Positions 1 to 55,859 of a stretch of 64,000 nt of DNA are shown here, piece after piece. Both the position numbers and the translations under genes were made by a program. The stretch lies in the sequence record PP989838.1; one strand, 5' to 3'. The stretch's first letter is position 1, and every line of letters begins with the position of its first letter. The DNA is from Escherichia phage VTCCBPA_211. The notes under the pieces were generated by a model that worked only from the letters and a program-made list of their open reading frames with translations, was not told where the DNA came from and ran no database searches.

Positions 1-239
1 GCGCTCGCCGCGTGTTTCTCAAAAAGGGGGAGTCCTCATTTAAAAAAAGGGTTATTGGCAATGCCTTTACCTTCCCTTTCAACGTTCCACCTTTCCCCGT
101 GCCTACTCCCCGTAATTATTCCCCCGTGTATACTACCCAATACATTACCTACCCGTTTATTTAGTTCCCCTTTACTGAGTGAGAGAAAGGCCAGCACTGT
201 ACAGGCCAACTGATTAGTCTGCTAATAATGCCATTAATG

Positions 240-500
240 ATGGTTGACAGCTACAGAGTAGCGTCGTATTCCCCCATAGTTACGTTGATAATAGTTTCAA
301 TAGTAATGATTATGAGTGCAATAATGATATATGTATTAATTAAGTGTATGATTGTATTTCTTTTAATTATTCTTTTAAGAATGATTGTTTTTATTTCTTT
401 TAATCTTTTCCTTTTTCAGCGTGCCTTTGTGAGCGTAGCGAACGTCTTTGATGTTTGAGTTAACGATTGATAGCTACGAAGTAGCGTTATACTAATTATT
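240..500. promoter_or_regulatory. AT-rich segment (approx 280-420) flanked by AGTAGCG-containing repeats; candidate origin or regulatory region
   Basis: Read directly: agctacagagtagcgtcgtat (approx 247-267), gagcgtagcgaacg (approx 436-449), agctacgaagtagcgttatac (approx 473-493) flank a very AT-rich stretch with no convincing ORF. Confidence 0.25.
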
Positions 501-649
501 TAAGTGGTATATTATTACCGCACTATCTGGCTATGTTCCCCCGTGGTCTGTTCTGCGGTTGTATGCCCCGTCCTATATAGTAGAAATAGTTTACCCGTGG
601 TCGCTTGTCTTCCTTGTTAAGTAATAGTAAATTGAAGCCTATCAATTGA

Positions 650-841
650 GTGATTGGAGTGATAGAAATGATTATTCTAGTAATGATGGCAATGGCTGTA
701 GTGTTTCCTTTACTTGTTCTGATCGTTTGTGAAGTAGTGGAATTGTTCACTGATAGCAAGTTAAGCCCAAGAAACAAACCTAGTAAGTTTGATGGCGCTA
801 CTTTTAGTAGAAAGAAAGTTAGAAAGATGGTTGCAATGTAA
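650..841 (+). CDS. small hydrophobic membrane protein (probable start ATG 668)
   Basis: ORF with one predicted TM helix (MIILVMMAMAVVFPLLVLIV); first + strand ORF of the early block. Confidence 0.3.
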   Translation: MIGVIEMIILVMMAMAVVFPLLVLIVCEVVELFTDSKLSPRNKPSKFDGATFSRKKVRKMVAM

Positions 842-894
842 GAAAGCGTGTCCTATTATATCCCTATCTGATACATATCAAAGAGGCTTCACAA

Positions 895-1386
895 ATGACT
901 AAACCAATGCAGATGATTAATCTGGCAAGTTATGCGCTAGTCGCCGCGATCGGTGTTAGCGCGCTGGTAACATCTCTTTCTGATAAGGCTATTGCTGGCC
1001 CTATTTCTGCAAATGATGCCGCTAGTGTTTTCGCTAGTTCCATCAATAAAGGTTGGATGATTTGCAATGGTGCGGATAGTGATGGAAGTGCCATTGTGTT
1101 AAAAGTGAAATTTAGCAACGTTACTAATGAGGGCGTTCTCTTTCAGTCTAAGACGTTGGACAATCAGCCGAACAATGATCTGGTACTCAAGCGCACTGAT
1201 AACGATGCGGATATGGTGACGTATGGCACTGTAAAACGTTATAAAGACGTTAAAGCTGTAACCAATCTAGTGAGTTATGGCCCGGTTAATCAGTCGATGA
1301 TTGCCACCACGGTTTACAATAACGCTGATAATGCTGTTTATACTGTTCACATTAATCTAGCCAACTGCATCAAGGCCAGTAAGTAA
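895..1386 (+). CDS. early secreted/periplasmic protein with N-terminal signal peptide, unknown function
   Basis: SD aaagagg before ATG; hydrophobic N-terminus ASYALVAAIGVSALV. Confidence 0.55.
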   Translation: MTKPMQMINLASYALVAAIGVSALVTSLSDKAIAGPISANDAASVFASSINKGWMICNGADSDGSAIVLKVKFSNVTNEGVLFQSKTLDNQPNNDLVLKRTDNDADMVTYGTVKRYKDVKAVTNLVSYGPVNQSMIATTVYNNADNAVYTVHINLANCIKASK

Positions 1387-1413
1387 ATAACCAATTTTCA
1401 GGAGTAACAAAAA

Positions 1414-1665
1414 ATGAGTAACGAAGCGATTAAATTATCCAGCGGTGTTTCTTGTTTTGTGTGTGATACTTTTATCTCGTTCGGCTTGGAAGAAGGTTGC
1501 GTTATAATCCCTACCGTTGCCTTTTGTTCCATGAGTTTTAGCGAGGCTAAAAGATGGCTCCAATTGGTGCGCATTGATATAAATCGCGATGACTTCCGTT
1601 CAATTTACAATGACGGTGGTTTGTCGCTTGCTGGTCTTCTGGATTGTGATTTGCCAAAATGGTGA
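1414..1665 (+). CDS. hypothetical early protein
   Basis: ORF with SD caggag upstream; Cys-rich. Confidence 0.5.
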   Translation: MSNEAIKLSSGVSCFVCDTFISFGLEEGCVIIPTVAFCSMSFSEAKRWLQLVRIDINRDDFRSIYNDGGLSLAGLLDCDLPKW

Positions 1666-1871
1666 TAAAAATGATTCATGATTATCTTTGGCGTTGCTTG
1701 TTCGTTGTTACAGTGGCGTTGTTCGTCGCTGATATGCTTTATTCTTACATCCTTTGAGGTCCGGTTGTGTTGTTTCTGTTTTTGTTTGCCATTGGCTTCA
1801 TTTCTTTAAATTATTTACTGATTGTTGCCGCTCTCGATGTTATTAATCTCACCATTAAAGGTTGATTGGCT

Positions 1872-1967
1872 ATGTGGTTTATTAGATTCGTCGTTAAAAC
1901 GGTTGTAGGCTTCTTTCTGGTCATTCTTCTGTTAGGTGTCCTTCTATCGGCTATGGGTAATGCTTAA
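1872..1967 (+). CDS. small hydrophobic peptide (31 aa), speculative
   Basis: ATG 1872, TAA 1965-1967; translation MWFIRFVVKTVVGFFLVILLLGVLLSAMGNA is one TM helix. Confidence 0.2.
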   Translation: MWFIRFVVKTVVGFFLVILLLGVLLSAMGNA

Positions 1968-2359
1968 ATCCATAGGCTTAATCTTTCTCCTGTATTGTGC
2001 CGTGGTCATGCCTATGGTCATAATCTATCTGATGCTCTAATCCTTCCTATAAGCGCCGCTATGGCGCTTTTCTGTTTTCTAAGGTGATTGTATTCCTTAC
2101 TCCCTTTTAGTTCGCTGTAGTGCGTTTTAGGCCGTTAAATATCGATTTACAAGCCGTTTCCTATGATGTACCGCGTGCGTGCGCTCTTTTACTCTCCCAC
2201 TATGAAAAAAGTTTAAAATATTTTGCTTTACCCTATTGCATCCCTCACTGATTAATGTATACTTCATTTCATCGGGTACGATGTAAAACATACAAGGCAA
2301 GAAATTGCCCCGCTCTTTAAAAATCAGGCTAGAAAGTGAAAATATTCTTAAAAAGAGTA

Positions 2360-2388
2360 TTGACACCAGAAAAAGCCTGATACATAAT
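2360..2388 (+). promoter_or_regulatory. sigma70-type early promoter P1
   Basis: TTGACA (2360-2365), 17-nt spacer, CATAAT (2383-2388); A-rich UP-like tract upstream. Confidence 0.6.
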
Positions 2389-2509
2389 TAGCACACAGTC
2401 AGCGATGACTTGAAAAATCCCGCTCTTTAAAAACTTATCATCTTGCCCTTTCGCACAGAATCACGCGAGAAAGAGGGATAGAAAAGAAAAGAAGATGATA
2501 AAAAAGAGA

Positions 2510-2538
2510 TTGCAAACGTGGTTAAAGTAGTTCATACT
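2510..2538 (+). promoter_or_regulatory. sigma70-type early promoter P2
   Basis: TTGCAA (2510-2515), 17-nt spacer, CATACT (2533-2538); upstream aaaaagaga tract. Confidence 0.5.
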
Positions 2539-2814
2539 AACCACAAGTTAGCAAAACATCGCTAACTAGTTCCCAAATCAACGTATCGCGGGAAAGGTGG
2601 CACATAGTGCAGCGAGTAGTTCGGGATTAGGCGCCCCGTTAATGAATAAGTAAGCCTTTAATGATGCAGTGATTAGCAGACACTATAAAAGGCTAAAAAC
2701 GCTCTTTAACAAAATGAATCATGAGTTAAGCCTTATCGCTTAATCTTCAACCCAACAAAGCGGGTTGATATATCCTCCCAATAGAGGGAACGACGAAAAA
2801 GATTAAAAAAGTGG

Positions 2815-2843
2815 TTGACGGCGAAAACATCATGGTCCATAAT
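2815..2843 (+). promoter_or_regulatory. sigma70-type early promoter P3
   Basis: TTGACG (2815-2820), 17-nt spacer, CATAAT (2838-2843); A-rich tract upstream. Confidence 0.6.
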
Positions 2844-3615
2844 GAGCACACTCAAGCAAAACACCGCTTCAGTGAAAAGCGAAACAACGGCTTACAGTTG
2901 CGTAGTGTGAGAAAGCACACTGACAGATTTACCGCTCTTTAATAATTTAAACATTCTCCTATATCGGTTGCATATGCTGGAAGATAATAACCATCGGAAA
3001 GCATACCAGATAAAACGGTGTAAGGCCCCTAAACTATCAGGGTAAACAGTCTTACAATCCCTTAACTGGAAACGTCACCACTGTTAAACGGATTCATTGA
3101 GTACACGCAACGGCTTAAACTAATCGCCCACGGTTAAAGGGTAGCGGCGGCCATCGCTAACAAGGTGCTACAATGAAAGAAGTTTATCAGGGTAGGCAAG
3201 TCCGACAAATTAACGCCCAATTGAGGGCGGCGGGGGATGGTTAAAAAGTGGCAAATTGCTATTTAACAATAAGGTTTAATGCGAACGTTTACGATGTGAA
3301 CGGCTTGAGATTCGTCTTATGACGGAAGTACATAGTCGGGTTATGTAGTAAACCCGCCGAAAGATATAAAACGCCGGAATATTAGGCGGTCAATGATCTC
3401 TTTCCGCAATAACCTCCCGTAGTGGGCGATGGTTAGCGGTTAGGAGTTGGCACAAAGGATAAGCGGGAGCGAAAACAAAGTAGACGATATTGCCGACGGT
3501 TACAGCAATGTAATTAAATAGAGTCGGACGCATAGCCTTATTGTGATGATTGATCATCGCTATCAGGTCGGCTTCGTTTATAGCGACTAATTAAAGATAC
3601 CAGATGAAACATCAC

Positions 3616-3664
3616 GGATAAGGGGGCGGCAAGGTTAACTCCTGATAAGACCGCCCCGCTTATC
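3616..3664. repeat. imperfect inverted repeat (about 13 bp arms, 21-nt spacer)
   Basis: ggataagggggcgg ... ccgccccgcttatc read directly. Confidence 0.35.
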
Positions 3665-3765
3665 AATAATTACTTAACAATGAGTGGTTATCGATAAGTC
3701 AACAGTGACTTAAAAAGCTCATAGAGAGCGGGGCATAGTGCCCTTACAATTGAAAGGTGAATATC

Positions 3766-4665
3766 ATGGCTAAAATCTTTACTCTGGTTAACGAATCTGG
3801 TTTTAATGCTCTGGCTAACAATATCCGTAGCAATAATGCAGCGATCAAACAGGATGTTTCTAATTTTCTGTTAGGGCACTTACAGCACTTCCGTAGCAAC
3901 GGTAAAAAGTTAGACGTATTGCAGTCGGCGGTTGATTTTCTGTTAACCGAACGTTTCCGCGATATGGATGTTATTGCTACCGCAATCACTTTCTTAACTC
4001 CTATCAAGTTTAACACTGATGCGGCGAATGGTCGTAAGAAGTGGATTAATCTGGAAGGTGAAGCGAAAGCGAAAGAAGATGCGAAAGAAGCGCAAATTAA
4101 AACCAAAATGGAGCAAAACCGCGCTCGCTGGTCAAACGCTTTCGAAAACTTCGCGTTAGGTCGTGAAATTGAAGTCGATAACCCTAACTTCTTCAAAGGT
4201 TGCAATGACAACGTAGCGGCACACCTGCAAATTCCGGCAAAGAATAAAGAAGACTTTAACCAAGATATTTACGCTTTGGTTGAACGCTTGAATGCAATCC
4301 GTATTGAAGCCAAATTACTGGCTGATGAGCGCAACGGCGCAACCAGTGATAATACTATCGCCTTAAGTGAAGAAGTGGGCAAGGTTAAAAAGTCCTTTGA
4401 TTCACTCATCAAGAAAGTCACGGCATCGACGGTAGCGATCTCAGATGATTATCTGATGAACGCATCAAGCAAGGAGCTGGAATCACTCGATTCATACGCT
4501 GATGAAATGGAAAAGACTGTTGCAGCTATGCAGGAGAAGTTAGAAAGTCTGCGCGGTCGTATCTCTTCAACGGTTGCTACCCGTACCGAACAAGCTGCGA
4601 AAGAAGAAGAGGAAGAAGTATTGCGTAAAGCTGCTGAAATTATGGCGGCACGTCAGGCGGCATAA
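3766..4665 (+). CDS. early protein, unknown function (acidic/coiled C-terminal half)
   Basis: ATG 3766 preceded by SD gaaaggtga; 299 aa ORF followed by intrinsic terminator. Confidence 0.7.
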   Translation: MAKIFTLVNESGFNALANNIRSNNAAIKQDVSNFLLGHLQHFRSNGKKLDVLQSAVDFLLTERFRDMDVIATAITFLTPIKFNTDAANGRKKWINLEGEAKAKEDAKEAQIKTKMEQNRARWSNAFENFALGREIEVDNPNFFKGCNDNVAAHLQIPAKNKEDFNQDIYALVERLNAIRIEAKLLADERNGATSDNTIALSEEVGKVKKSFDSLIKKVTASTVAISDDYLMNASSKELESLDSYADEMEKTVAAMQEKLESLRGRISSTVATRTEQAAKEEEEEVLRKAAEIMAARQAA

Positions 4666-4688
4666 GTAAGACAATCTAAATAAACATA

Positions 4689-4720
4689 AGGCGCTATCTT
4701 AACGGGTAGCGCCTTTTCTT
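4689..4720 (+). terminator. rho-independent terminator
   Basis: ggcgcta...tagcgcc hairpin followed by ttttcttt. Confidence 0.6.
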
Positions 4721-4766
4721 TATCAGTGCATTGATTCAGTGCATTAATCAAAGAATCTAATCAAAG

Positions 4767-4994
4767 GTGACGATCATGTTAATTACACATACCACGATTT
4801 ATCGGAATCTTGTCAACGGTCAACATTACCGCCTATCTAAAAAGTATGGCGTTGAATGTAAATGCGTTATTACCGGTGAATGGTATCCGTCACCAATGAA
4901 GATTGAAACGTTGGAACGTGAAGCGATCAGCTATATTATCACGCAAGAAACAACGTTAGGCCGTATCTTAAGAAAGCTGGGATTGAGAAAATGA
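4767..4994 (+). CDS. hypothetical small protein
   Basis: ORF; stop overlaps next start (ATGA) indicating translational coupling. Confidence 0.55.
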   Translation: MTIMLITHTTIYRNLVNGQHYRLSKKYGVECKCVITGEWYPSPMKIETLEREAISYIITQETTLGRILRKLGLRK

Positions 4995-5215
4995 TATTCA
5001 GTAATAATTTTGGCAAGTGTCCTATTTGTGAGAAGCATCGCAGCACGGGAAACCATCGCAAGTGTAGTAAGATATTACAGCGCCAACGTGATAACAACCA
5101 TTGGGATACTGTGCACACTAACCAGCGTAAAGAAGAAGTTAGGAAAATGGCTGTTAAAGCGTCGTTTGCTCAATCAACCCGTATCGAACATATTCAAAGG
5201 TATCAAGCATTATGA
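4991..5215 (+). CDS. hypothetical small protein with CxxC motif
   Basis: ATGA overlaps at both ends; GKCPICEKH. Confidence 0.5.
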   Translation: MIFSNNFGKCPICEKHRSTGNHRKCSKILQRQRDNNHWDTVHTNQRKEEVRKMAVKASFAQSTRIEHIQRYQAL

Positions 5216-5421
5216 TCACTAATATTTCAGAGTTTAAGAAAGCGCCATCTCGTTTGTTAGGTCGTCGTGTTATATATCTTTACAGCAATAAAGGTAAATG
5301 TACAACCGGACAAATTACAACGGTGAGTAGTACCAACAAAACATTACTAAAATTATGCGTAACTATGGATGATGGTACAATCCTGCTACGTAGTTGGAAG
5401 TCATTTAGTTTACTCGATTAA
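5212..5421 (+). CDS. hypothetical small protein
   Basis: ATGA overlap with upstream gene. Confidence 0.5.
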   Translation: MITNISEFKKAPSRLLGRRVIYLYSNKGKCTTGQITTVSSTNKTLLKLCVTMDDGTILLRSWKSFSLLD

Positions 5422-5490
5422 GTTATTTGTTCAAGCCTATCGCCTTGGTGGGCTTGCCCGATATAACTTATCACTGAAAGGAGTGAGATT

Positions 5491-5934
5491 ATGGCTAAAT
5501 CTAAAATCAGTATGAAGGGCGGGCGTTGTTTTTCTATCTCTGAACTGGAGAAAGAGAAGCCGAAGGCAACCAATTACATTAGTAAGCGCAGTTTAAAACG
5601 TCGTGCTGCAAAGGCTGAAGCTGAATCCTATATCCCTTCTAGTGTGGCAAAACGTGTAGGTCATCGCGTCCATCGTGCTGATGCGTTGTTGTTAGCTGAT
5701 CATAAACGTTCTTTGTTAAAGAGCGGGGGAGCTAAAACAGAAGAAGAGAAGAAATTAGAAATATTCTGTAATGGTCGCACCCGTGGTAAACAGAAGTTTA
5801 AGGGTAGCACGAAAGACCCTCAGGCTTTCCCTAAGACAAGCCAGTGTGCACCTGATGTTTTCTACGCAGACAGTAAACACAAGTGGGGCGTTGAAAAATA
5901 CATTGACCCTATCAAAGAGGCGAGGGTTAAGTAG
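5491..5934 (+). CDS. basic (Lys/Arg-rich) early protein, unknown function
   Basis: SD gaaaggag; 147 aa ORF. Confidence 0.6.
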   Translation: MAKSKISMKGGRCFSISELEKEKPKATNYISKRSLKRRAAKAEAESYIPSSVAKRVGHRVHRADALLLADHKRSLLKSGGAKTEEEKKLEIFCNGRTRGKQKFKGSTKDPQAFPKTSQCAPDVFYADSKHKWGVEKYIDPIKEARVK

Positions 5935-5947
5935 TAGGAATATATCC

Positions 5948-5979
5948 CCTCTTTTAGTACTATGACGCTCTTTCTGTAG
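5948..5979 (+). promoter_or_regulatory. conserved intergenic motif CCTCTTTTAGTACTATGACGC (copy 1; copy 2 at 11708-11740)
   Basis: Near-identical roughly 30-nt block immediately after stop codons at two loci. Confidence 0.35.
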
Positions 5980-6013
5980 CGTCGTGCCCTCTCCCCATTT
6001 GAAGCTTCCGCAT

Positions 6014-6037
6014 AGCCGCCTTTGAGCGGCTTTTTGC
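6014..6037 (+). terminator. putative intrinsic terminator
   Basis: agccgc...gcggct hairpin followed by ttttt. Confidence 0.45.
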
Positions 6038-6098
6038 GTTGCTGTAAGTGCATTTGCGAGTGTATTTATAGCAACGGTCATGTGTTGCTTTCAGGTTT

Positions 6099-6126
6099 GC
6101 CCCGGCTACGGCTGGGGCTTTTTTAT
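6099..6126 (+). terminator. intrinsic terminator
   Basis: gccccggc tacg gctggggc hairpin followed by tttttta. Confidence 0.6.
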
Positions 6127-6173
6127 GCCCGTAAAACAGGAGGTAGCAAGTTCTGATAACAACGGCACAGCTA

Positions 6174-6563
6174 ATGTTGACATTGACTATTTATTATGAG
6201 GCAGGGAATCAGCCAACCGCATGTAAAGCTATGGTTGCGGATACCGTGATAAATAGAATGGCCCAACGAAAACTGACCGCTGAACAGGTGATAAGACAAA
6301 AGAACCAGTTTGAGTGGATTCCGGTACTATTAAAACAGGAGAAACCTTATAAACGTTATGTAAAGCTGATTCGTGATAAAAATCCGATGACTAAGCAAGC
6401 CATTGGAGAAAGCGAGCGACTTGCTAAACGTGCCCTTAAGAAGAATTATGTTCCGCTGTACAGTGGGACTTACTTTCAGAGTAAGAGCGAAGGGGTGCCA
6501 AAATGGTATGCCAATCCCATGTATTGTGGTGATTTAGTGTTCGATAATAGCTCTAGGGAATAA
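6174..6563 (+). CDS. putative SleB-like cell-wall hydrolase domain protein
   Basis: Motifs EAGNQPTACKAMVADTVINRM and QKNQFEW resemble the SleB/Hydrolase_2 family (recollection). Confidence 0.45.
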   Translation: MLTLTIYYEAGNQPTACKAMVADTVINRMAQRKLTAEQVIRQKNQFEWIPVLLKQEKPYKRYVKLIRDKNPMTKQAIGESERLAKRALKKNYVPLYSGTYFQSKSEGVPKWYANPMYCGDLVFDNSSRE

Positions 6564-6762
6564 TCACTAGTGCCAGATTTGACAAACTAAATTCCTTTAT
6601 AAACCAACCACTTAGTAAATTTATTGAAAAAGATGGTAGTATTCTGGGACTATGAGTAATGCTCTGTATATAGACCCTTTGAAAATTTCTTAGAAAATAA
6701 GTTTACTAAATATAACTTACTTAAATAATATTACTTTTAATCTCTGATAAAGGGTAAATAAT

Positions 6763-7059
6763 ATGACTTTAGAAGTATATAAATTCCTTTTTGTAAGCTG
6801 TTTAACTATCAGCGTTATAGGATTTATTATCCTTAGAAACAAAGCAGCAAGCTGGGAGAGAATGTATAAATCCCTAGTCCGAGTGGATGAGATGTATAAT
6901 GAGAAAGTTAAAGTGACTCTTAACGATCTTATTATGCAAGTTGAAGACAGAAACAAACGTCTTCAGAACCTCAATCATGAAGTATTGCGCCTTGCTCGTG
7001 CTAATGAAGACTTGCGAGTGGCTATTGCTAAGCAGCAGGAGATTAACAGTGATAATTGA
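6763..7059 (+). CDS. membrane-anchored coiled-coil protein, unknown function
   Basis: N-terminal TM (FLFVSCLTISVIGFIIL) then helical region. Confidence 0.5.
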   Translation: MTLEVYKFLFVSCLTISVIGFIILRNKAASWERMYKSLVRVDEMYNEKVKVTLNDLIMQVEDRNKRLQNLNHEVLRLARANEDLRVAIAKQQEINSDN

Positions 7060-7060
7060 T

Positions 7061-7285
7061 ATGAACCATCCACCAAAGAAGTTAACTCTTGGGGATCTAG
7101 ATTCAGGTGATGTGTTCCAATTCTTTGTGAACTCTGATGATTTTTATATGGCTTCCTGTAGATTTAACAAATCGGATGGTTGTAGAAATTATATGAACCT
7201 TTCGAACGGTGTGATCTCAGCAGATCGTAATACTGTGGTTGTTAAGAAGATTAACAATGCTCGACTTACAGATAAGGTGGATTAA
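7061..7285 (+). CDS. small-protein paralog family A, member 1
   Basis: ATG 7061 right after upstream stop; motif LTLGDLDSGDVFQF shared with six other ORFs. Confidence 0.55.
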   Translation: MNHPPKKLTLGDLDSGDVFQFFVNSDDFYMASCRFNKSDGCRNYMNLSNGVISADRNTVVVKKINNARLTDKVD

Positions 7286-7287
7286 CA

Positions 7288-7524
7288 GTGAAAGTTAATA
7301 TTAAATCTGATCGTACAATGCTTCGATTAAATAACATGAAGCCGGGCGTTCTGTTTGAGCGTAAAGAGTCCCTTTATATTAGAACTGACACATTGTACGC
7401 AGATAACTATGTGAACTGTGTTGATGTGGTAACTGGAAAGCTAATGCCTATTAAACGAGATGAAGTCTGCCAAGTACGCAGTGATCTCCACATAACAAAC
7501 ATAGAGGCTAAAGATGAAGATTGA
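7288..7524 (+). CDS. small-protein paralog family A, member 2
   Basis: Tandem with 7061 and 7514 genes; similar size and motif layout. Confidence 0.5.
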   Translation: MKVNIKSDRTMLRLNNMKPGVLFERKESLYIRTDTLYADNYVNCVDVVTGKLMPIKRDEVCQVRSDLHITNIEAKDED

Positions 7525-7768
7525 TCTGAACCTTAAAGCTAAAGAATTGCGTGTGGGTGATTTGAAACTTGGTGATGTGTTCCAAGTTAAGGCAACATGT
7601 ATTGATTATTACATGATTGTTCAGCTATACACACCACATGTGTCAGAGACTGATCTTCGGAATGGTTGTGTAGTTCTTAGTTTAAGCACCAATCAAGTAA
7701 TGAAGCTAGATTCAAACTTACCTGTTTCAGTCATCCATGATGTAGTAATTACTAATAAAGAAAAGTAA
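7514..7768 (+). CDS. small-protein paralog family A, member 3
   Basis: LRVGDLKLGDVFQV motif. Confidence 0.55.
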   Translation: MKIDLNLKAKELRVGDLKLGDVFQVKATCIDYYMIVQLYTPHVSETDLRNGCVVLSLSTNQVMKLDSNLPVSVIHDVVITNKEK

Positions 7769-7776
7769 CATCGACT

Positions 7777-7880
7777 TATAGCCCTTGTGTTTATCAGAGG
7801 GCTATGTGAGGGTGTTCCTCATTAACTTATTAATTCAGGCATATGCCACACCGCTAGGGAGAGCTTGCTCGAACATCCGG
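7777..7880 (+). promoter_or_regulatory. conserved intergenic element (hairpin + GTGAG + GCTAGGG...AACATCCG), copy 1
   Basis: atagccct...agggctat hairpin at 7777-7805 then gctagggagagcttgctcgaacatccgg at 7853-7880; near-identical copy at 12041-12150. Confidence 0.4.
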
Positions 7881-8126
7881 TGTTAGACTAAAACCTGTTA
7901 ATTTTCGAAAGACTTTCTGATATGTAGGGGTACATATTGGTTTGGGATTCAGGAGACTTCCTAGGGGTAGGGAGTCTTCACCAGTTGGGATAAGAGATAG
8001 CTCTAGAACCTGAACTCTTAGGCAGAGAAGGTCGGCAATGAGTACGCGGTCAGAATTAGTCTACTGACTAGGGCTATCCCTTATATCAACTGGCAATAAT
8101 GCCTCCACTAACAAAGAGAGATAGAT

Positions 8127-8267
8127 ATGAAAGTATCAACCAAACGTATGAACCGCCCTGAACGTATGGATGCAGTAGCTAATGGTGCTCTGAAACTGGA
8201 AGGCTTCTGGATTCATGCGATGTCAGCCATCCGTAACAAGCAAGGCAATTGGACCTATGGTAACTAA
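8127..8267 (+). CDS. small ORF (46 aa), speculative
   Basis: SD aaagagag before ATG 8127. Confidence 0.3.
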   Translation: MKVSTKRMNRPERMDAVANGALKLEGFWIHAMSAIRNKQGNWTYGN

Positions 8268-8457
8268 CAAAGAACAAAAAGCTATCTGTCGTTGTGCTCC
8301 TTTCTTCTTTGCAGAAGACGGGGATGTGTTCAGTAAGCTTGCACAAGAGTTAGGTTGTTCTCGAACTGGTGCTAAGGTAGTCTTTCATAAGTGGCTTATC
8401 TATTCTGACTCTTACGTGGCTATCAAATTAAGAGAACTGCAAATACACACGCTTTGA
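8215..8457 (+). CDS. hypothetical small protein (start uncertain, possibly ATG 8257)
   Basis: ORF overlapping previous small ORF; contains GDVF like family A. Confidence 0.35.
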   Translation: MRCQPSVTSKAIGPMVTNKEQKAICRCAPFFFAEDGDVFSKLAQELGCSRTGAKVVFHKWLIYSDSYVAIKLRELQIHTL

Positions 8458-8538
8458 ATAAAAGGCTGCCCAATCGGGTGGCCTTTGTTGTTTTAATTAA
8501 GGGTCAGCTCTTACTTAAACTAACAAGAGGAAGCTCAA

Positions 8539-8715
8539 ATGTCTAAGCAAACAATCAAACATACGCAAGCTGGTTACTCTTATGTTAACTCTCCTTGTTG
8601 TGGCGCTCGTGTCAATATGGTTAAGGAAGAGGTTCGTATCGTTCAGCGTGGCGCTACTGTTGTTCGTTCATGCTGTGTCTGTGGTAATGATATTTTTATC
8701 AAAGGTAAAGTATGA
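8539..8715 (+). CDS. small zinc-ribbon-like protein (58 aa)
   Basis: SD aagagga; CC..., ...CCVC cysteine pairs; ATGA overlap with next gene. Confidence 0.45.
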   Translation: MSKQTIKHTQAGYSYVNSPCCGARVNMVKEEVRIVQRGATVVRSCCVCGNDIFIKGKV

Positions 8716-8963
8716 AAAACTTTCAAGCTGCACCAATTACTAAAGTGATTGCAGTTAATGATGTGATGATGGCTGTTCCTCTGAACACTCGTTACATTGC
8801 AATTGACAAGATGGGTTATGTATGGGCTTGGAAGATTAAGCCTAGCTATAACGCACTGTTTGATGAGTTTGTTTGTACTGGTACTTACAGTCCTACATTC
8901 TTGGGTTTGTTTAGTGAGTTTGATGGTCAGTATAAAATCATCACACTCCCTGCTTGTGCTTGA
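8712..8963 (+). CDS. hypothetical protein, paralog of 8971-9204
   Basis: YIAIDKMGYVWAWKIKP vs YLATDSNGEVYGFTHKPEI. Confidence 0.5.
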   Translation: MKNFQAAPITKVIAVNDVMMAVPLNTRYIAIDKMGYVWAWKIKPSYNALFDEFVCTGTYSPTFLGLFSEFDGQYKIITLPACA

Positions 8964-8970
8964 GGTTCTG

Positions 8971-9204
8971 ATGGAGACTAAAGAGGTTAAATATTTTGGT
9001 GAAGTTGTTAAAGTAGGTAACTCTATAAGATATTTAGCAACTGATAGCAACGGCGAAGTGTATGGCTTTACCCATAAGCCAGAAATTCGTGGATATGCTT
9101 GGGCACTCCCTTATGGAACTCCATTCGAGACTGGAGGAGCTGTTTATCTTAATGATAATGGACCTATGTTTGCATGGAAAACATCTCTCGTTGAGGTAGT
9201 GTAA
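8971..9204 (+). CDS. hypothetical protein, paralog of 8712-8963
   Basis: ATG 8971 in frame of the longer track ORF; shared motif with upstream gene. Confidence 0.5.
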   Translation: METKEVKYFGEVVKVGNSIRYLATDSNGEVYGFTHKPEIRGYAWALPYGTPFETGGAVYLNDNGPMFAWKTSLVEVV

Positions 9205-9206
9205 TT

Positions 9207-9371
9207 ATGTTCAAGTGGTTTAAACGTCTATTCCATCTGCACGATTGGGTAATCCTTGAAAAGTATACACTAAAGATCACTGATGATTATGGCGATACGA
9301 AACATAAAGGTTTACGCTACATCATGCAGTGTAAAACGTGTGGTCATATCACCAAGCGAGATATGATCTAA
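9207..9371 (+). CDS. small CxxC protein (54 aa), speculative
   Basis: ATG 9207 3 nt after upstream stop; CKTCGH. Confidence 0.35.
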   Translation: MFKWFKRLFHLHDWVILEKYTLKITDDYGDTKHKGLRYIMQCKTCGHITKRDMI

Positions 9372-9379
9372 ATAATTCT

Positions 9380-9456
9380 GCGCCCTTAGTTCAATTGGAC
9401 AGAACATCGGATTTCTAATCCGTCGGTTACAGGTTCGAATCCTGTAGGGTGCGCCA
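9380..9456 (+). tRNA. tRNA-Arg (anticodon UCU)
   Basis: Hand-folded cloverleaf: acceptor GCGCCCT/AGGGTGC, D-arm GTTC..GAAC, anticodon loop TTTCTAA, T-arm ACAGG TTCGAAT CCTGT, 3' CCA encoded. Confidence 0.8.
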
Positions 9457-9475
9457 AATCGAATAGGAGGTAGCC

Positions 9476-9775
9476 ATGAGTTGGGGTGGTGTAATATCCT
9501 TAATCTGTATCTTCCTTGTCTGCATAGCCCTTACAGGCTGCGTACAGAGCCGTCCTGATGGATGGTGTGCAGTAGCAGTGGATGGTATTTGTGTATCTCG
9601 CTGGCATAAGGGTGAGAAGATTCCTTCTGGTGAGATTAATATGCGCTGGAACGGAGCAACCTGTTCTAATGCTAACCCTTCTATCAACGAAGAGAAGTCT
9701 ACACCGGATAATGTTGTTATTGATACAGCATTGTGGTGTGGTGGCTCTACGATTACAACCGGTAAGGAGTGGTGA
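9476..9775 (+). CDS. lipoprotein (lipobox LTGC), possibly superinfection-exclusion-like
   Basis: SD aggaggt; signal peptide plus lipobox ALTG|C; Cys-rich mature part. Confidence 0.55.
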   Translation: MSWGGVISLICIFLVCIALTGCVQSRPDGWCAVAVDGICVSRWHKGEKIPSGEINMRWNGATCSNANPSINEEKSTPDNVVIDTALWCGGSTITTGKEW

Positions 9776-9776
9776 T

Positions 9777-9974
9777 ATGAATTACACATCTACAAAGGTG
9801 TTAATTGATTCAATTAATAGCTCCTCAGAAGCTGTACAGGAGCGTTTAATACAAGATGTTAGCAATGACATTAAGTTCTTTGTTAAACGACGCCTGTTAG
9901 GTTCTAAGGCTTATTACAGAGCTAAAGCAGAGCTTACAAAGAGGGTGTTTCTCTTACACGGATTAGTGTATTAA
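9777..9974 (+). CDS. hypothetical small protein
   Basis: ATG 9777 just after upstream stop, SD ggagtgg. Confidence 0.45.
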   Translation: MNYTSTKVLIDSINSSSEAVQERLIQDVSNDIKFFVKRRLLGSKAYYRAKAELTKRVFLLHGLVY

Positions 9975-10268
9975 GAGCTTATCGTGAAGGATTCTTACGA
10001 GAGTCCTTTGAGATAGGACTTCAGATCTCCTATCAAACTAACATTCATGTAACTAGCCCATAAGGGCGTTACCCTTTAATAACCCAGCCCACTAAGGGGG
10101 CGGGAGTTTAGTGCTGGATTGGCTTTACGCTTATCCCTACAAAGGCAACCGATTGTTAGATCTTACATGCAATATTAACTAATAGGATAAGGGAGGATTC
10201 GTCCCCTCCCCCTATTTATTGAATCTTTATCTAAGCAAGTCTTATATAAATGTTTAATTGGAGGGTAT

Positions 10269-10580
10269 ATGAAACCTGAAAGAATTAGATGGACTCCTGA
10301 AGTTATAAAACAGCTAGAAGTCTTGGTTAATAATTATTCTTTAGAAACAGTTGCAGATATTATGGAAACAAACAAATCAGTTATTAGCAGAGCCTGCTCT
10401 AGTTTCCAGATAAAACGTAAACGTCAAAGAAAAGTCTGGTCTGAAGAAGAAGATCAGTTCCTTATCCGTAATGCTGGGTTCATGCCCATTCAGAGAATGG
10501 CTGACATGCTCGGTAGAAGTTATGCTGCTGTACAGAACAGGGCATGTATGCACCTTAACATTAGCCTAAAACTTAAATAG
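10269..10580 (+). CDS. putative DNA-binding (HTH/Myb-like) protein
   Basis: W..EE.. motif and basic KRKRQRK stretch. Confidence 0.45.
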   Translation: MKPERIRWTPEVIKQLEVLVNNYSLETVADIMETNKSVISRACSSFQIKRKRQRKVWSEEEDQFLIRNAGFMPIQRMADMLGRSYAAVQNRACMHLNISLKLK

Positions 10581-10588
10581 GAGTCAAG

Positions 10589-10819
10589 ATGAATTTTGAA
10601 CTAGTACCAAAAAGCAAAACACCCTCCAAGACTTTCTCTGACTTGGAGAATGGAGATGTTTTTCGTTTTATTGGTGACGATGTAGTCCCTAAATTCTGGA
10701 TAAAAACAGGGGAACATTCTGCAATGTGTGTTCGGAACCCTAAAGATATTTTCTTTCCGGTCCCTTTGTCCAATACTGTTGATCTGTTCGAATCTAAACT
10801 TATTATTCAGGGTAAATAG
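10589..10819 (+). CDS. small-protein paralog family A, member 4
   Basis: TFSDLENGDVFRF motif. Confidence 0.55.
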   Translation: MNFELVPKSKTPSKTFSDLENGDVFRFIGDDVVPKFWIKTGEHSAMCVRNPKDIFFPVPLSNTVDLFESKLIIQGK

Positions 10820-10820
10820 T

Positions 10821-11069
10821 ATGAAGATTACTCACAAGAAAGAAGAAGTGACTACGGTTGATCTCAACTCCCTTCCCAGCGGAGCAGTATTTAAATTCCC
10901 TGAGAGTGCTACTCTCTATGTTAAAGGGTCTGTGTCTGAAAGTCCTCATGTAACCGTTAACTCTGATCGAGCAATTACCCTTCGTTTATCCGATGGTAAC
11001 GTAACAGCACCTTCTATCTGGTGCCGAGTTGTTCCTGTGTCGGCAGAACTTTTGGTGGATAACACATAA
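10821..11069 (+). CDS. small-protein paralog family A, member 5
   Basis: ATG 10821 immediately after upstream stop; LNSLPSGAVFKF. Confidence 0.55.
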   Translation: MKITHKKEEVTTVDLNSLPSGAVFKFPESATLYVKGSVSESPHVTVNSDRAITLRLSDGNVTAPSIWCRVVPVSAELLVDNT

Positions 11070-11314
11070 TGAAAATCATCCCAAAGAAAAAGGATAATAC
11101 GGTACGATTGGAAACAATCATTCCTGGAAATCCTTTCGTGGTTCAGAACGGAAGTGCTTCTCCTCAATATTACATGAGGGTTGAAAATGCTTCTTGTAAC
11201 ATCCGTATAGCCAGTGGTTGGGTTCCTGTGGTAAACCTTTTCACAGGTGTACTATCTGTTAAAGGTCTTGACGATCAGGTAGAAATGATTCGTATGTCTG
11301 TGGTTCAGGAGTAA
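11069..11314 (+). CDS. small-protein paralog family A, member 6
   Basis: RLETIIPGNPFVVQ. Confidence 0.5.
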   Translation: MKIIPKKKDNTVRLETIIPGNPFVVQNGSASPQYYMRVENASCNIRIASGWVPVVNLFTGVLSVKGLDDQVEMIRMSVVQE

Positions 11315-11321
11315 CAAGTAG

Positions 11322-11570
11322 ATGAGCACCATTAGTATTAAAGTTAAGCATAAGAAAGAGAACATCCTCAGGGTTATGGATTTATTCAGAGCCGACGTCT
11401 TTACTTTAAAACAGTGTCCAACTTCCCATACCTACATGCTAACGAACCCGAGCAATGGTCTTAAGCCCGCTGGGGCGGTTAATCTGGGAACTGGAGAACT
11501 TCGGACAATTGCTGGTGATATGGTTGTTGATGAGAAGTTTAGTAAAGTCGAAATGATCTTAACTCCTTAG
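11322..11570 (+). CDS. small-protein paralog family A, member 7
   Basis: RVMDLFRADVFTL. Confidence 0.5.
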   Translation: MSTISIKVKHKKENILRVMDLFRADVFTLKQCPTSHTYMLTNPSNGLKPAGAVNLGTGELRTIAGDMVVDEKFSKVEMILTP

Positions 11571-11801
11571 GAAAACAAATGAGACTTAAAGCATATTCTT
11601 ATGACGATATGATTAACCAAAAAGGCTTCGGTCAACGACAGCCTGATGGTTCAATTATCTGGTTCGTAAACGGACAGAAAAAGGTAGCTAAATAAGCCCT
11701 CTTCTCTCCTCCTTTTAGTACTATGACGCCTCTCTGTGGGCGGCCCAATTTGCGTAGGGAATTCCCTCTACGCAGCCATGACTTTTTAAGGAATTTCCCC
11801 T

Positions 11802-12035
11802 ATGTCTAAAGTAAGCGCAATTGATGCAATCCGTCAACCATTCCAGTTCCAATCTAAATCAACCCAAACCTTCAGTGAGCCTAAGCAAATTCGCTTGGGC
11901 GGCACAGAAAAAACTGTGTTTGATCTGGCTAAAAATAAGAGCGTTACCGTAGTTGATGGTGGCACTCTGGTTAACGTTTCCCATCGAATCCGAACTGGCA
12001 AAACTGCCAAAGATCGTGCTAAGAAAGGCGAGTAA
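11802..12035 (+). CDS. hypothetical protein
   Basis: ORF followed by the conserved hairpin element. Confidence 0.5.
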   Translation: MSKVSAIDAIRQPFQFQSKSTQTFSEPKQIRLGGTEKTVFDLAKNKSVTVVDGGTLVNVSHRIRTGKTAKDRAKKGE

Positions 12036-12040
12036 CGCCT

Positions 12041-12150
12041 ATAGCCTTCTTCGGAGGGCTATGTGAGTTATTCTGACTCAACTAACCTAATCTTAATATA
12101 TTTCCCGTATGGGGCCGATGCTAGGGCGAGGAGTGTTCCTCAAACATCCG
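12041..12150 (+). promoter_or_regulatory. conserved intergenic element, copy 2
   Basis: atagccttcttcggagggctat hairpin then gctagggcgaggagtgttcctcaaacatccg. Confidence 0.4.
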
Positions 12151-12217
12151 TCGGATAGATATTTTAAGAGCAGGTTATCCACAGATATTGGGTAATATCT
12201 TTTTGTATTTAAAGCTT

Positions 12218-12246
12218 GACTCTTTTCGGAGAGTCCTTTTTTAAAT
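12218..12246 (+). terminator. intrinsic terminator
   Basis: gactct...agagtc hairpin followed by cttttttaaatt. Confidence 0.55.
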
Positions 12247-12261
12247 TCAACGAGAGGAAAT

Positions 12262-12414
12262 ATGTCTAAATTAGATTTAAAACTGCTAGCAGCAGCGGTA
12301 GTGATTTGTGCACTAGCACTGGTAACGCAGAGAACATCTGGATTTATTCAGTGTTTCTTTTCTGGGCAATCCACTTATCAGTGGGTTATTGACGAGTGTA
12401 AACAACAGGAGTAA
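12262..12414 (+). CDS. small membrane/secreted peptide (50 aa), speculative
   Basis: SD gagagga; hydrophobic LLAAAVVICALALV. Confidence 0.35.
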   Translation: MSKLDLKLLAAAVVICALALVTQRTSGFIQCFFSGQSTYQWVIDECKQQE

Positions 12415-12416
12415 GT

Positions 12417-12779
12417 ATGAATACACGTCCCATCAAGGGCAACGTTAATATTGAAACTCTGAACAAGGTTGCATCAAACCTCGGTGGAATGTCCAACGAT
12501 GAGCTTGAGCAAGAACTTGCTTGGATTGCAAATGGTATCAAAGTTGCTAAAGGTAAGATTGCTCGTGAGCAAAGCAACATGAAAGCTCACAAGTATATCA
12601 TCCGTCGTGCAAATGTGTTACCAGAGCGGGTTGTACATCTTGCCCGTAAAAACTACGCAGAAGCAAAGAAAGCTCTGGAAGAAGCTACTTTCCAGAAGCA
12701 CCAATTTATGAACAACTATCGAAACTTCCGAGATATTCTTTATATCCGTAAGTCGATTGAGTTGATTAAAAACCAATAG
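12417..12779 (+). CDS. hypothetical protein, first gene of the ligase operon
   Basis: ATG 2 nt after upstream stop. Confidence 0.55.
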   Translation: MNTRPIKGNVNIETLNKVASNLGGMSNDELEQELAWIANGIKVAKGKIAREQSNMKAHKYIIRRANVLPERVVHLARKNYAEAKKALEEATFQKHQFMNNYRNFRDILYIRKSIELIKNQ

Positions 12780-40495: not shown

Positions 40496-40521
40496 TTAGC
40501 CACCTTCGGGTGGCTTTTTTC
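40496..40521 (+). terminator. intrinsic terminator
   Basis: agccacc ttcg ggtggct hairpin followed by tttttt. Confidence 0.65.
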
Positions 40522-40795: not shown

Positions 40796-42052
<1,257 letters not shown>

Positions 42053-53851: not shown

Positions 53852-54886
53852 TTATTGTATGCTTCTAAAAATTTTCCTAGCATCTAGGACTGGAACCTGA
53901 AGGGAGATAGCCCCACCACCACCCATATCGTAGTTTCTATCCCACTGGAACATATATCGACCATACCCTGTACCAAAAGAAGAGCCGTTCATCGTATGAG
54001 ATCTAGCATGTTGGAAATACCAACTCCCCGCCTGACCTCTAATAGAACCTGCTCCGTTTGTCAGAGGTATCATAGGATATGTAAGTCCAGTATTCCCTCC
54101 ACTCATAGCCATAAAACGATCAACCATAAAAGGTGTTCTGTAAGTAGAAAATACACACTGAGAACCATTAGGTGAATATATGTTTAATCCACCATTGTGA
54201 GTAGGAACACCAGCCCCATTACAGAACACTGCAACTCTCACATTATTGATTGTTCCTGTTTGGTTGTTGTTTCCGTTATTGTAGGTTCTGTTTTGGTAAA
54301 CCCTGATATTACGACTCCCAGCATCATAGAGTAAACCTTGTCCTCCAGACCAGTTAGCAAATACGGAAGCTCTAGACATATCAAAACCACTGATTGCTGG
54401 TATTTTCATAGAGCCATTAATATTTCCTTCCCAAGCCCAAATACATTGACCAACAACTCCAGCATCTGATATAGAGAAGTAATCAGCTGTGTTTGAAAAT
54501 GTTATCCCGTAGTTTCTATTAGCTCTGGGCCATATTTGATATACATTGAAAGCCACGTCAAACAATGGGTTACTTCCCGGATTCATATTTAAACTAACCC
54601 TGAAAGTCGAGTTATTAATGATGCTGATGTTATTCACAACATACACATCAGGGACAAGGTTAGGAGGAACCTCCCATTGCCAACACAGAGAGCCAGTAGG
54701 GACTACAACTATTTGACCTGAGCCATTCCATCCAGAAATAGGGAAATCCCTACTTCCTCCGTTAAAGTTATAATTACCGCTTACTCTGTTCTTAAATTGA
54801 GGGAAAGTAGAACCACTGTCAATAAAAAGCTCAGCCGGAGAAGCTGGTCCCGGCCCGGCTGGCGTTGTCCATATTCCATATGCCAT
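53852..54886 (-). CDS. tail-associated protein, unknown function
   Basis: ORF in tail module. Confidence 0.55.
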   Translation of the reverse strand: MAYGIWTTPAGPGPASPAELFIDSGSTFPQFKNRVSGNYNFNGGSRDFPISGWNGSGQIVVVPTGSLCWQWEVPPNLVPDVYVVNNISIINNSTFRVSLNMNPGSNPLFDVAFNVYQIWPRANRNYGITFSNTADYFSISDAGVVGQCIWAWEGNINGSMKIPAISGFDMSRASVFANWSGGQGLLYDAGSRNIRVYQNRTYNNGNNNQTGTINNVRVAVFCNGAGVPTHNGGLNIYSPNGSQCVFSTYRTPFMVDRFMAMSGGNTGLTYPMIPLTNGAGSIRGQAGSWYFQHARSHTMNGSSFGTGYGRYMFQWDRNYDMGGGGAISLQVPVLDARKIFRSIQ

Positions 54887-54887
54887 A

Positions 54888-55859
54888 TTACCAAGTCCCT
54901 ATTCTAATACGAAGCGTACCACTTCCATCATAGAAGTCTATACGGCTACCATTCATCCACAACCGGTTACTACCAGAACCAGCCCCTAATTGGAAATCAC
55001 CACCAACAGTCAGTCTCCAGTTTGTACCACTCATGGCCCCTGCTGTAATCTTATTAGCTGATAGGCTTACAATCTGAGCATTCTGTATTGATACATTATC
55101 AATCTGTGCCCATTGAATCCTAGCATTAGCAATCATAGCAGTTGTGATATTGACATTCTTTATGTCAGCGAACTCCATTCTAGCTCTTCCATTCTCAAAT
55201 ACAAAAGGGGTATTCCCTGTCGTACCATTACCTACGATGAACTTGTTAGCTGTTACTTGGAATTGGCTGTTTGTTCCATTGTTAGTTAACTTGACCCCAG
55301 CATATCTTCCGTTGACTGTAGAGTTAACACCCCACGTAGCTTCATACTCAGAAAGCTTCATATATTGAGAGAGGCTTCCATTAATATTTTGAATCTCTGT
55401 CTGAACTAAAGCAATCTCTTGACCTTGGTCGTTGACAATACCTTCTACCGTTTGAATCTTAGTTGTGTTACCTTCAATACTTGTTTTAAAGCCAGATACA
55501 GTGCTTTCTAATTTTACAGGAGGTTGAACAGAATTATCCCAAATATCTTCAGTGGAGAGATTCCCCATCTGTGTTATAATATCTGCGATAGCTGTTTCAA
55601 TCTCTGTGGTAATTCTGTTCTCAAGCTCATCAAATTGTAGATTCATCGCATGAAGAGCTTTGATACGAACATCAATCTCATCGTGAATCTCATCAATAGC
55701 TTGGAACATTTGGTTAGTAGCTGTACTGACTTTCTGTAGCTCGTCATATACGGCTACGTTATATGTTTCTGTGTCCTGTACATTATTGAGAAACCCAACG
55801 TTGTACGGGAGTGTGGTGTTATTACGACCAGTGTTCTTACGAAAACCACCTGCACCCAT
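54888..55859 (-). CDS. tail fiber-like protein (start at ATG 55859)
   Basis: SD ggagg before ATG 55859-55857; track N-terminal extension overlaps upstream gene and a hairpin. Confidence 0.55.
   Translation of the reverse strand: MGAGGFRKNTGRNNTTLPYNVGFLNNVQDTETYNVAVYDELQKVSTATNQMFQAIDEIHDEIDVRIKALHAMNLQFDELENRITTEIETAIADIITQMGNLSTEDIWDNSVQPPVKLESTVSGFKTSIEGNTTKIQTVEGIVNDQGQEIALVQTEIQNINGSLSQYMKLSEYEATWGVNSTVNGRYAGVKLTNNGTNSQFQVTANKFIVGNGTTGNTPFVFENGRARMEFADIKNVNITTAMIANARIQWAQIDNVSIQNAQIVSLSANKITAGAMSGTNWRLTVGGDFQLGAGSGSNRLWMNGSRIDFYDGSGTLRIRIGTW

Follow-up and report, generated by a model that had tools for sequence, protein, structure and literature searches.

We describe a small lipoprotein gene (9476..9775, plus strand) in a stretch of 64,000 nucleotides from Escherichia phage VTCCBPA_211 (sequence record PP989838.1), which we call the window. 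With phiEco32-like phages (Kuravirus, Gordonclarkvirinae), which are podophages, the region shares 88-95% identity. Judged from its sequence, the product clearly belongs to the Rtp45 family, is predicted to be a small outer-membrane lipoprotein and is the ortholog of phi32_106 of phiEco32. We consider it likely that this Rtp45-family lipoprotein acts as a plug of the lipopolysaccharide (LPS) translocon LptDE and thereby serves superinfection exclusion. An earlier note on this DNA had proposed the lipoprotein as a candidate superinfection-exclusion factor aimed at the receptor of its own phage, and this proposal gains support, at the level of homology, from the likeness to Rtp45 and from a homolog of LptD-type receptor-binding proteins (RBPs) encoded in the same genome. 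With less assurance, we lean towards the view that LptD is the terminal receptor of kuraviruses and is recognised through a single DUF6453 protein located at the tail-needle tip, so that the lipoprotein would plug the receptor of its own phage.

Kinship of the lipoprotein with Rtp45

The lipoprotein falls in Pfam family PF24052 with 114.4 bits against a cutoff of 27 (E=2.3e-33, residues 3-99). Its best sequence match in the PDB is 9rps_D, which is Rtp45 (phmmer, E=5.9e-13); the sequence of 9RPS chain D is identical to that of rtp45 of siphophage Rtp (Q333D9). By BLASTP, the lipoprotein and Rtp45 share 41% identity over residues 6-60 (56-amino-acid alignment, E=2e-16). Rtp45 and the exclusion protein of Oekolampad, a phage of proven LptD dependence, are 35% identical (bioRxiv 10.1101/2025.07.07.663478; PMC12685063), and the higher identity between the lipoprotein and Rtp45 therefore favours family membership. 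That the family is narrow shows in a profile search against 1.84 billion representative proteins, which gave 21 matches at E <= 0.001, about 16 of which were 64-109 amino acids long and the rest long proteins with repeated weak partial matches, and a wider function could not be borrowed from it. That PF24052 contains the protein was already known, as was the annotation of a lipoprotein in the phiEco32 record (NC_010324.1), where phi32_106 is listed as 'putative phage lipoprotein'.

Rtp45 is the only structurally characterised member of its family. Dunbar et al. solved the structure of LptDE-LptM-Rtp45 (PDB 9RPS; bioRxiv 10.1101/2025.07.07.663478; PNAS, PMC12685063). In this complex Rtp45, a lipoprotein of about 6 kDa, sits on the periplasmic side of LptD near strands 5-8, between LptE and LptM; its residues 30-35 pair as a beta-sheet with LptD residues 318-323, and Cys30 and Cys38 form a disulphide (PMC12685063). 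A long Rtp45 hairpin climbs the LptD lumen and loop EL4 is shifted outward by up to 20 Å; the phage RBP needs open LptD and cannot bind the state occupied by Rtp45 (PMC12685063). Co-expression of Rtp45 and LptDE still allowed enough growth for the complex to be obtained (PMC12685063). The Rtp genome has the lipoprotein gene directly before rtp44, which encodes the proposed LptD-binding RBP, and beside the gene for the J-like tail tip.

Two segments of the lipoprotein carry most of this likeness, as placed by an alignment of 17 kuravirus and siphophage sequences (alignment A1):

9539..9661, plus strand: Cys22 and conserved core, residues 22-62, RPDGWC31...C39V..W..G..IPSGEI.MRW.G
9740..9772, plus strand: C-terminal strand GGS.ITTGKEW, common with Rtp45 (SGSVRDYGSKEW)

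Aligned over its full length with Rtp45, the lipoprotein keeps the anchor cysteine, the pair of disulphide cysteines, the RPDGWC core and the terminal GxKEW, as well as the strand motif W..G..(I/V)P.GE(I/V).(M/V)R(W/Y).G. Kuravirus and siphophage members all carry P27, G29, W30, C31, C39, G46, G52, R57 and G60, and R26 and D28 are at least 90% conserved. C31 and C39, which are present in all 17 sequences, correspond to the Cys30-Cys38 disulphide of Rtp45. The C-terminal strand shows the same pattern, with G90, E98 and W99 invariant and S91, G96 and K97 at least 90% conserved. When an AlphaFold2 (AF2) model of the lipoprotein was compared with the PDB by Foldseek, the first-ranked match was again 9rps_D (probability 1.00), with a template modelling (TM) score of 0.75 normalised to the target and a root-mean-square deviation (RMSD) of 7.7 Å; all other matches had E > 4. 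The agreement between this predicted fold and that of Rtp45 is one of topology only, namely a long beta-hairpin.

The gene and its product

The gene starts with ATG and comprises 99 codons plus a stop, according to the list of open reading frames (ORFs) and direct reading of the sequence. An in-frame TAG at 9464-9466 excludes a longer N terminus. Two features mark its start:

9465-9470, plus strand: Shine-Dalgarno sequence AGGAGG, 5 nucleotides before the ATG (direct reading)
9476..9538, plus strand: signal peptide, residues 1-21, ending in the lipobox LTG/C, without a basic n-region (rule-based scan)

The leader (residues 1-21, MSWGGVISLICIFLVCIALTG) has a best 12-residue Kyte-Doolittle mean of 3.4 and is closed by the lipobox L-T-G-C, which makes Cys22 (9539-9541) the candidate lipid anchor; the lipobox and type II signal peptide were called by a rule-based scan, not by a dedicated predictor. 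This leader aligns with that of Rtp45, and Cys22 matches the lipid-anchor residue Cys20 of Rtp45. Position +2 after the lipobox cysteine is valine, not aspartate. Under the standard Lol sorting rule, a +2 residue other than aspartate sends a lipoprotein to the outer membrane, and the valine thus predicts outer-membrane sorting. The mature protein of 78 amino acids contains, besides Cys22, cysteines 31, 39, 63 and 88, and all five are invariant among kuravirus homologs.

Homologs of the lipoprotein occur in 369 phage records. Five kuravirus genes were compared in pairs, and in each of the 10 pairs the ratio of nonsynonymous to synonymous substitution rates (dN/dS) over codons 1-62 was between 0.09 and 0.51, and the core of the protein is under purifying selection. 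The Pfam match, the 369 records and the dN/dS values together confirm that the ORF is real and more than a product of chance. What the earlier note had read from the letters holds at each of these places: a strong Shine-Dalgarno sequence (AGGAGG, at the spacing listed above), a signal peptide with a lipobox (a hydrophobic leader ending in LTG/C22, with the caveat that a basic n-region is missing), a small cysteine-rich domain (four cysteines beyond Cys22 in the mature part) and an adjacent tRNA gene, which is tRNA-Arg(UCU) and ends 20 nucleotides upstream.

An LptD-type RBP homolog and a J-like tail tip in the same genome

Judged by homology, the window holds all three parts of the LptD module of small siphophages: a J-like tip, a DUF6453 RBP and a PF24052 lipoprotein. 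The first two are encoded next to each other:

53852..54886, minus strand: DUF6453 protein, 344 amino acids, ortholog of phi32_21 and SU10_019; predicted monomeric RBP of the Rtp44/RBP_Oeko family
54888..55859, minus strand: tail-needle gene, ortholog of SU10 gp18, just upstream of the DUF6453 gene

Rtp44 matched the window by tblastn at 54781-53888 on the minus strand (E=1.9e-8). The DUF6453 protein scored 89 bits in Pfam PF20051 against a cutoff of 25, and Rtp44, with 379 bits, belongs to the same family. By sequence, it also matched 9rpt_C, the Oekolampad RBP on open LptDE (E=2.7e-9). Foldseek, run on its AF2 model (predicted local distance difference test score, pLDDT, 83; predicted TM score 0.85), gave this same chain and no other at E <= 0.001, with E=1.3e-11 and a target-normalised TM of 0.80. 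The DUF6453 protein is the probable functional partner of the lipoprotein.

The needle protein matched PDB chain 7z4b_EA with E=3e-192, in an alignment that starts at ORF residue 23. Its C-terminal part contains the Pfam domain Phage_Tail_Tip (PF09327, E=1e-25), and residues 72-340 matched residues 905-1116 of the J-like protein of Rtp (BLASTP, E=4e-7). This C-terminal part is similar to the distal fibre found in lambda-J-like proteins, and the DUF6453 protein is predicted to dock on it.

Co-occurrence of the lipoprotein and the RBP

In siphophages, the two genes are usually neighbours: an Rtp44-like gene follows within 5 nucleotides of the lipoprotein gene in 13 of 14 loci. Such adjacency was seen in none of five kuravirus loci, and Klebsiella T1-like phages likewise hold the lipoprotein and DUF6453 genes apart, by about 10 kb. 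Adjacency is thus typical of the family and not part of the mechanism. The nearest relatives of both proteins outside kuraviruses also come from Klebsiella T1-like phages. At least 15 genomes of the kuravirus group match both genes, including SU10, ES17, EP335, SU7, ECBP2 and EcoN5. Salmonella phage 7-11, a distant C3 prolate podophage, shares the nozzle and short-fibre genes; profile searches of its six frames gave no lipoprotein, DUF6453 protein or J-like needle at E up to 10. The FhuA-type proteins from the RBP locus of phage T1 gave no match to DUF6453, which agrees with the published statement that receptor-specific RBP families are mutually unrelated.

A cysteine-bracketed hypervariable insertion

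The kuravirus lipoproteins differ from their siphophage homologs in one segment, located by alignment and on the AF2 model:

9662..9739, plus strand: kuravirus-specific hypervariable insertion between invariant Cys63 and Cys88

Among kuravirus homologs, the spacing between these two cysteines ranges from 8 to 33 residues (24 in the window) and the sequence between them is poorly conserved; the core flanking the insertion is 85-95% conserved. Siphophage homologs have neither the insertion nor the two extra cysteines and carry a short glycine-rich turn at that place. On the AF2 model, the insertion forms the loop that joins the two longest strands (residues 52-65 and 86-98) and is the least confident part, with pLDDT < 50 at residues 69-76. 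We place the insertion at the tip of the long hairpin because of the alignment with the Rtp45 hairpin that rises through the LptD lumen. Cys63 and Cys88 would then form a second disulphide that staples an enlarged, fast-evolving tip loop, and this loop probably enlarges the plug. Possibly, the stapled hypervariable tip reaches further up the LptD lumen than that of Rtp45 and meets the incoming RBP directly.

Nucleotide similarity to phiEco32 (blastn) ends at 9645, within the lipoprotein gene near codon 57, and returns only at 10269. Where phiEco32 has genes 100-105, the window has one 65-amino-acid ORF and non-coding DNA (9646-10268). Because the similarity breaks inside the lipoprotein gene, the early region appears to be mosaic, and a putative recombination boundary falls where the variable hairpin tip begins.

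A model for plugging of the receptor

We infer that the lipoprotein binds LptDE and brings about exclusion, that it is made early, and that it has a second disulphide and an insertion placed as described above, and combine these points as follows. The lipoprotein gene would be transcribed with the early genes, and the preprotein would be exported and lipidated at Cys22. The Lol system would then deliver the lipoprotein to the inner leaflet of the outer membrane, where it would dock on the periplasmic face of LptDE. There, the core stapled by Cys31-Cys39 would pair with the base of an LptD barrel strand, and the long beta-hairpin, extending up the LptD lumen, would hold EL4 in a position unacceptable to the phage RBP. 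Infected cells, and the membrane debris left after lysis, would become refractory to other LptD-dependent phages and also to the phage itself, the latter because the tip of its tail needle would carry the LptD-type DUF6453 RBP.

Several points weigh against this model. The published kuravirus receptor is the O-antigen, and the short tail fibres are assumed to find the terminal receptor. Tomograms of SU10 show many phages delivering DNA into one cell, which means that exclusion, if it occurs, is not immediate. SU10 gp19, the DUF6453 ortholog, is not reported among the virion proteins, on the protein gel or in the reconstructions of the SU10 study. The literature on Rtp45 gives the structure of the complex, and we found no in vivo exclusion or plating assay in it. 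None of the first seven leader residues of the lipoprotein is lysine or arginine, and the same holds for every kuravirus homolog, whereas siphophage homologs have one to three such residues in this N-terminal stretch. The AF2 model of the lipoprotein is only moderately confident (pLDDT 74, with the RMSD to Rtp45 given above), and the authors of the Rtp45 work describe AlphaFold3 models of these proteins and complexes as unreliable (bioRxiv 10.1101/2025.07.07.663478; PMC12685063). In the window, the lipoprotein gene lies about 44 kb from the RBP gene. Across kuraviruses, lipoprotein type and RBP type do not co-vary and assort independently: compared with the window, XT73 has 93% identity in the lipoprotein and 69% in the RBP, and SU7 has 54% and 69%. 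This independent assortment does not contradict the model, because the target LptD would be the same.

Our search of the literature found no publication linking LptD to Kuravirus, Gordonclarkvirinae, phiEco32, SU10 or DUF6453. LptD is essential and so is not visible to knock-out screens. In the SU10 study, the needle meets the membrane, and a 2025 paper, which does not mention LptD, considers that 'hand-like' Kuravirus proteins were possibly averaged out in cryo-electron microscopy. Phage JNUWD, cited as an 'unrelated' LptD-dependent phage, is a 44-kb siphophage and not a kuravirus.

Other explanations

If kuraviruses did not use LptD, the lipoprotein could still bind LptDE and shut LptD-dependent siphophages out of the same host, with the DUF6453 protein having another role or target. 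Such a purpose, directed at competitors only, would suit the distance and lack of covariation between the lipoprotein and RBP genes, the absence of gp19 from observed SU10 virions, a literature that names only glycan receptors for kuraviruses, and the identity of just 21-28% between kuravirus DUF6453 proteins and siphophage RBPs. We consider it unlikely, since the DUF6453 gene stands between the needle and ejection-protein genes, directly after the J-like tip; this tip is a homolog of the siphophage platform on which such RBPs are mounted; the DUF6453 fold matches RBP_Oeko and nothing else in the PDB; and phage 7-11 lacks all three genes together. The same partner protein bears on whether the kuravirus branch has been retargeted to another outer-membrane protein or has an envelope role other than exclusion. 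An insertion of 8-33 residues and two extra cysteines, absent from all siphophage members, could reflect such a change, and the weak match of T1 Cor, a FhuA blocker, to PF24052 would imply that related small lipoproteins may differ in target. However, both parts outside the insertion are conserved with Rtp45, including the segment that pairs with LptD strand beta-6, Cor has no PDGWC motif and aligns poorly, and the partner RBP is of the LptD and not the FhuA type; a different target is therefore improbable.

The location of the gene, in the early region among host-takeover genes, also raises the question of whether the main benefit is to stop the export of LPS and O-antigen or to weaken the outer membrane before lysis, with exclusion as a side effect. 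The Rtp45 hairpin fills the LptD lumen and should hinder the passage of LPS, and kuraviruses need O-antigen for adsorption. By our reasoning, however, LPS already at the surface would outlast one lytic cycle; co-expression of Rtp45 with LptDE did not keep cells from growing well enough to give the complex; and the siphophage homologs, lying in RBP loci, point to receptor masking as the selected function, all of which makes host takeover through inhibition of LptDE a very unlikely main role. Least of all do we expect a lysis protein, either an o-spanin or a unimolecular spanin. O-spanins are also small outer-membrane lipoproteins, but the gene described here lies in the early region, 31 kb from a spanin pair, with a tRNA gene and small early ORFs as its neighbours. 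A spanin role is ruled out by this separate, overlapping pair elsewhere in the window:

40510-40884, plus strand: i-spanin with an N-terminal membrane segment
about 40769-41029, plus strand: o-spanin with lipobox LSAC, out of frame and overlapping the i-spanin gene

phiEco32 has been catalogued with a two-component spanin.

Relations to two further exclusion lipoproteins were considered and set aside. For T5 Llp, there was no Llp chain among the PDB matches at E up to 10. T1 Cor (phage T1 9624-9851) scored 17.7 bits against PF24052, below the cutoff of 27 (E=0.0035), and its alignment shares little beyond the leader, which excludes it from the family. The match may reflect a very distant common origin of exclusion lipoproteins or merely the shared leader.

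Genomic setting and timing

By a blastn map, the start of the window corresponds to the right end of the phiEco32 genome, reverse-complemented. The following features concern the surroundings and expression of the lipoprotein gene:

9380..9456, plus strand: tRNA-Arg, anticodon tct (UCU), ending 20 nucleotides upstream of the lipoprotein gene (ARAGORN; Rfam RF00005, 67.6 bits)
9777..9974, plus strand: 65-amino-acid ORF directly downstream of the lipoprotein gene, phrog_13462 (function unknown, E=2.7e-30)
2360-2388, plus strand: promoter-like site of sigma-70 type, 11/12 matches (consensus scan only)
2815-2843, plus strand: promoter-like site of sigma-70 type, 10/12 matches (consensus scan only)

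The tRNA gene was the only match in the Rfam scan. The same tRNA precedes the lipoprotein gene in all five kuravirus loci examined (IMG/VR), and in phiEco32, too, phi32_106 comes directly after the tRNA-Arg gene. The tRNA and lipoprotein genes are probably co-transcribed. Their link is positional and not one of codon supply, because the three arginine codons of the lipoprotein gene are CGT or CGC, and none is AGA. On the other side, the start of the 65-amino-acid ORF overlaps the end of the lipoprotein gene region (TGATATG), and this ORF is therefore probably in the same transcript.

The lipoprotein gene lies 9.5 kb from the genome end that holds the early cluster and points in the direction of early transcription. 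According to published summaries, genes at this end of phiEco32 belong to the early class and are transcribed by the host sigma-70 RNA polymerase, for which four promoters stand where the early cluster begins. Both promoter-like sites listed above fall in a region that matches the non-coding gap between phiEco32 genes 124 and 125; on sequence grounds they are candidate early promoters, directed rightward towards the lipoprotein gene. In the scan as a whole, promoter-like sites were no commoner than in shuffled sequence (24 against 31 expected). The promoter motif of the phage sigma factor, TAATGTATA, was not above chance frequency in the window, and none was found just upstream of the lipoprotein gene on the plus strand. 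The earlier note had called the lipoprotein early. Gene position and the published summaries agree with this, and early expression would follow from position.

Terminator-like hairpins are frequent in this part of the window: positions 1-12500 contain 22 on both strands, compared with 8.7±2.6 in shuffles, and 12 of them are on the plus strand. Strong plus-strand hairpins at 4688-4715, 6014-6031, 6099-6118 and 8461-8486 separate the lipoprotein gene from the candidate promoters; transcripts reaching the gene would have to pass through them or begin at internal promoters. The excess of hairpins suggests several short early transcription units or antitermination.

Beyond the 65-amino-acid ORF, 9975-10268 (plus strand) is a stretch of 294 nucleotides with no ORF of at least 30 amino acids on either strand, no blastn match to phiEco32 and no Rfam match. 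It folds at -86 kcal/mol, more stably than shuffled controls (z=-2.7), and has a GC-rich terminator-like hairpin (10191-10210) near its end; it could be a terminator or promoter region, or a small RNA. A 54-amino-acid ORF (9207-9371, plus strand), which ends shortly before the tRNA gene, contains a CxxC motif (QCKTCGH) and matches phrog_8294, of unknown function. The tRNA-lipoprotein locus is flanked by two tandem clusters, 7061-7768 and 10589-11570 (both plus strand), which together comprise seven small paralogous ORFs of 73-83 amino acids, 16-32% identical, with a motif L..L..GDVF near the N terminus.

Implications and comparison with known systems

LptD, an essential and conserved protein, is also a target for antibiotics. 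If the lipoprotein does plug it, nature would have provided a second, divergent plug of this kind, one with a variable stapled loop, as a further template for understanding or designing LptD blockers. Should the model hold, kuraviruses would be the first podophage group tied to LptD, and the DUF6453 protein at the needle tip would be one that structural work as well as genetics has so far overlooked. The SU10 model, which has the needle just touch or penetrate the membrane, would then need revision. A terminal receptor would then be named for common therapeutic-candidate phages (ES17, SU10 and phiEco32 relatives), one that knock-out and transposon screens would have missed because lptD is essential. 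Under the model, kuraviruses and LptD-dependent siphophages should also show cross-exclusion and cross-resistance towards one another, a point to weigh when phage cocktails are chosen. Materials that have been described include BASEL kuraviruses able to infect K-12 when it makes O16 antigen, as well as lptD mutants with characterised loop changes.

Compared with known systems, the lipoprotein appears to be a structural and genomic variant of the kind described in 2025. It is homologous to Rtp45 from end to end, matches it in predicted fold and is accompanied in its genome by a DUF6453 RBP homolog and a J-like tip. It differs from Rtp45 in its length (99 amino acids compared with 76), in the two extra cysteines that bracket the insertion and in a leader without basic residues. 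The two genes also differ in their surroundings, as the window gene lies beside a tRNA gene in the early region and rtp45 lies immediately upstream of the RBP gene, and in the phages that carry them, a prolate podophage and a T1-like siphophage.

T5 Llp is likewise a small early lipoprotein that acts on the periplasmic side of its phage's outer-membrane receptor and prevents RBP binding, but its target is FhuA, it has no detectable sequence similarity to the protein described here, and it works by long-range allostery, in contrast to the physical displacement of a loop by Rtp45. Cor of T1, phi80 and N15 is small too, and T1-like phages encode this lipoprotein in their RBP locus; it is linked to FhuA, does not have the PDGWC motif or the paired cysteine pattern, and its partner proteins are not of the DUF6453 type. 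The host protein LptM (YifL) is also a small lipoprotein that inserts into LptDE from the periplasm, but it is an assembly and maturation factor that mimics LPS. Finally, o-spanins of the Rz1 type resemble the lipoprotein in being small phage lipoproteins of the outer membrane, but they are encoded with or within an i-spanin gene and are used in lysis.

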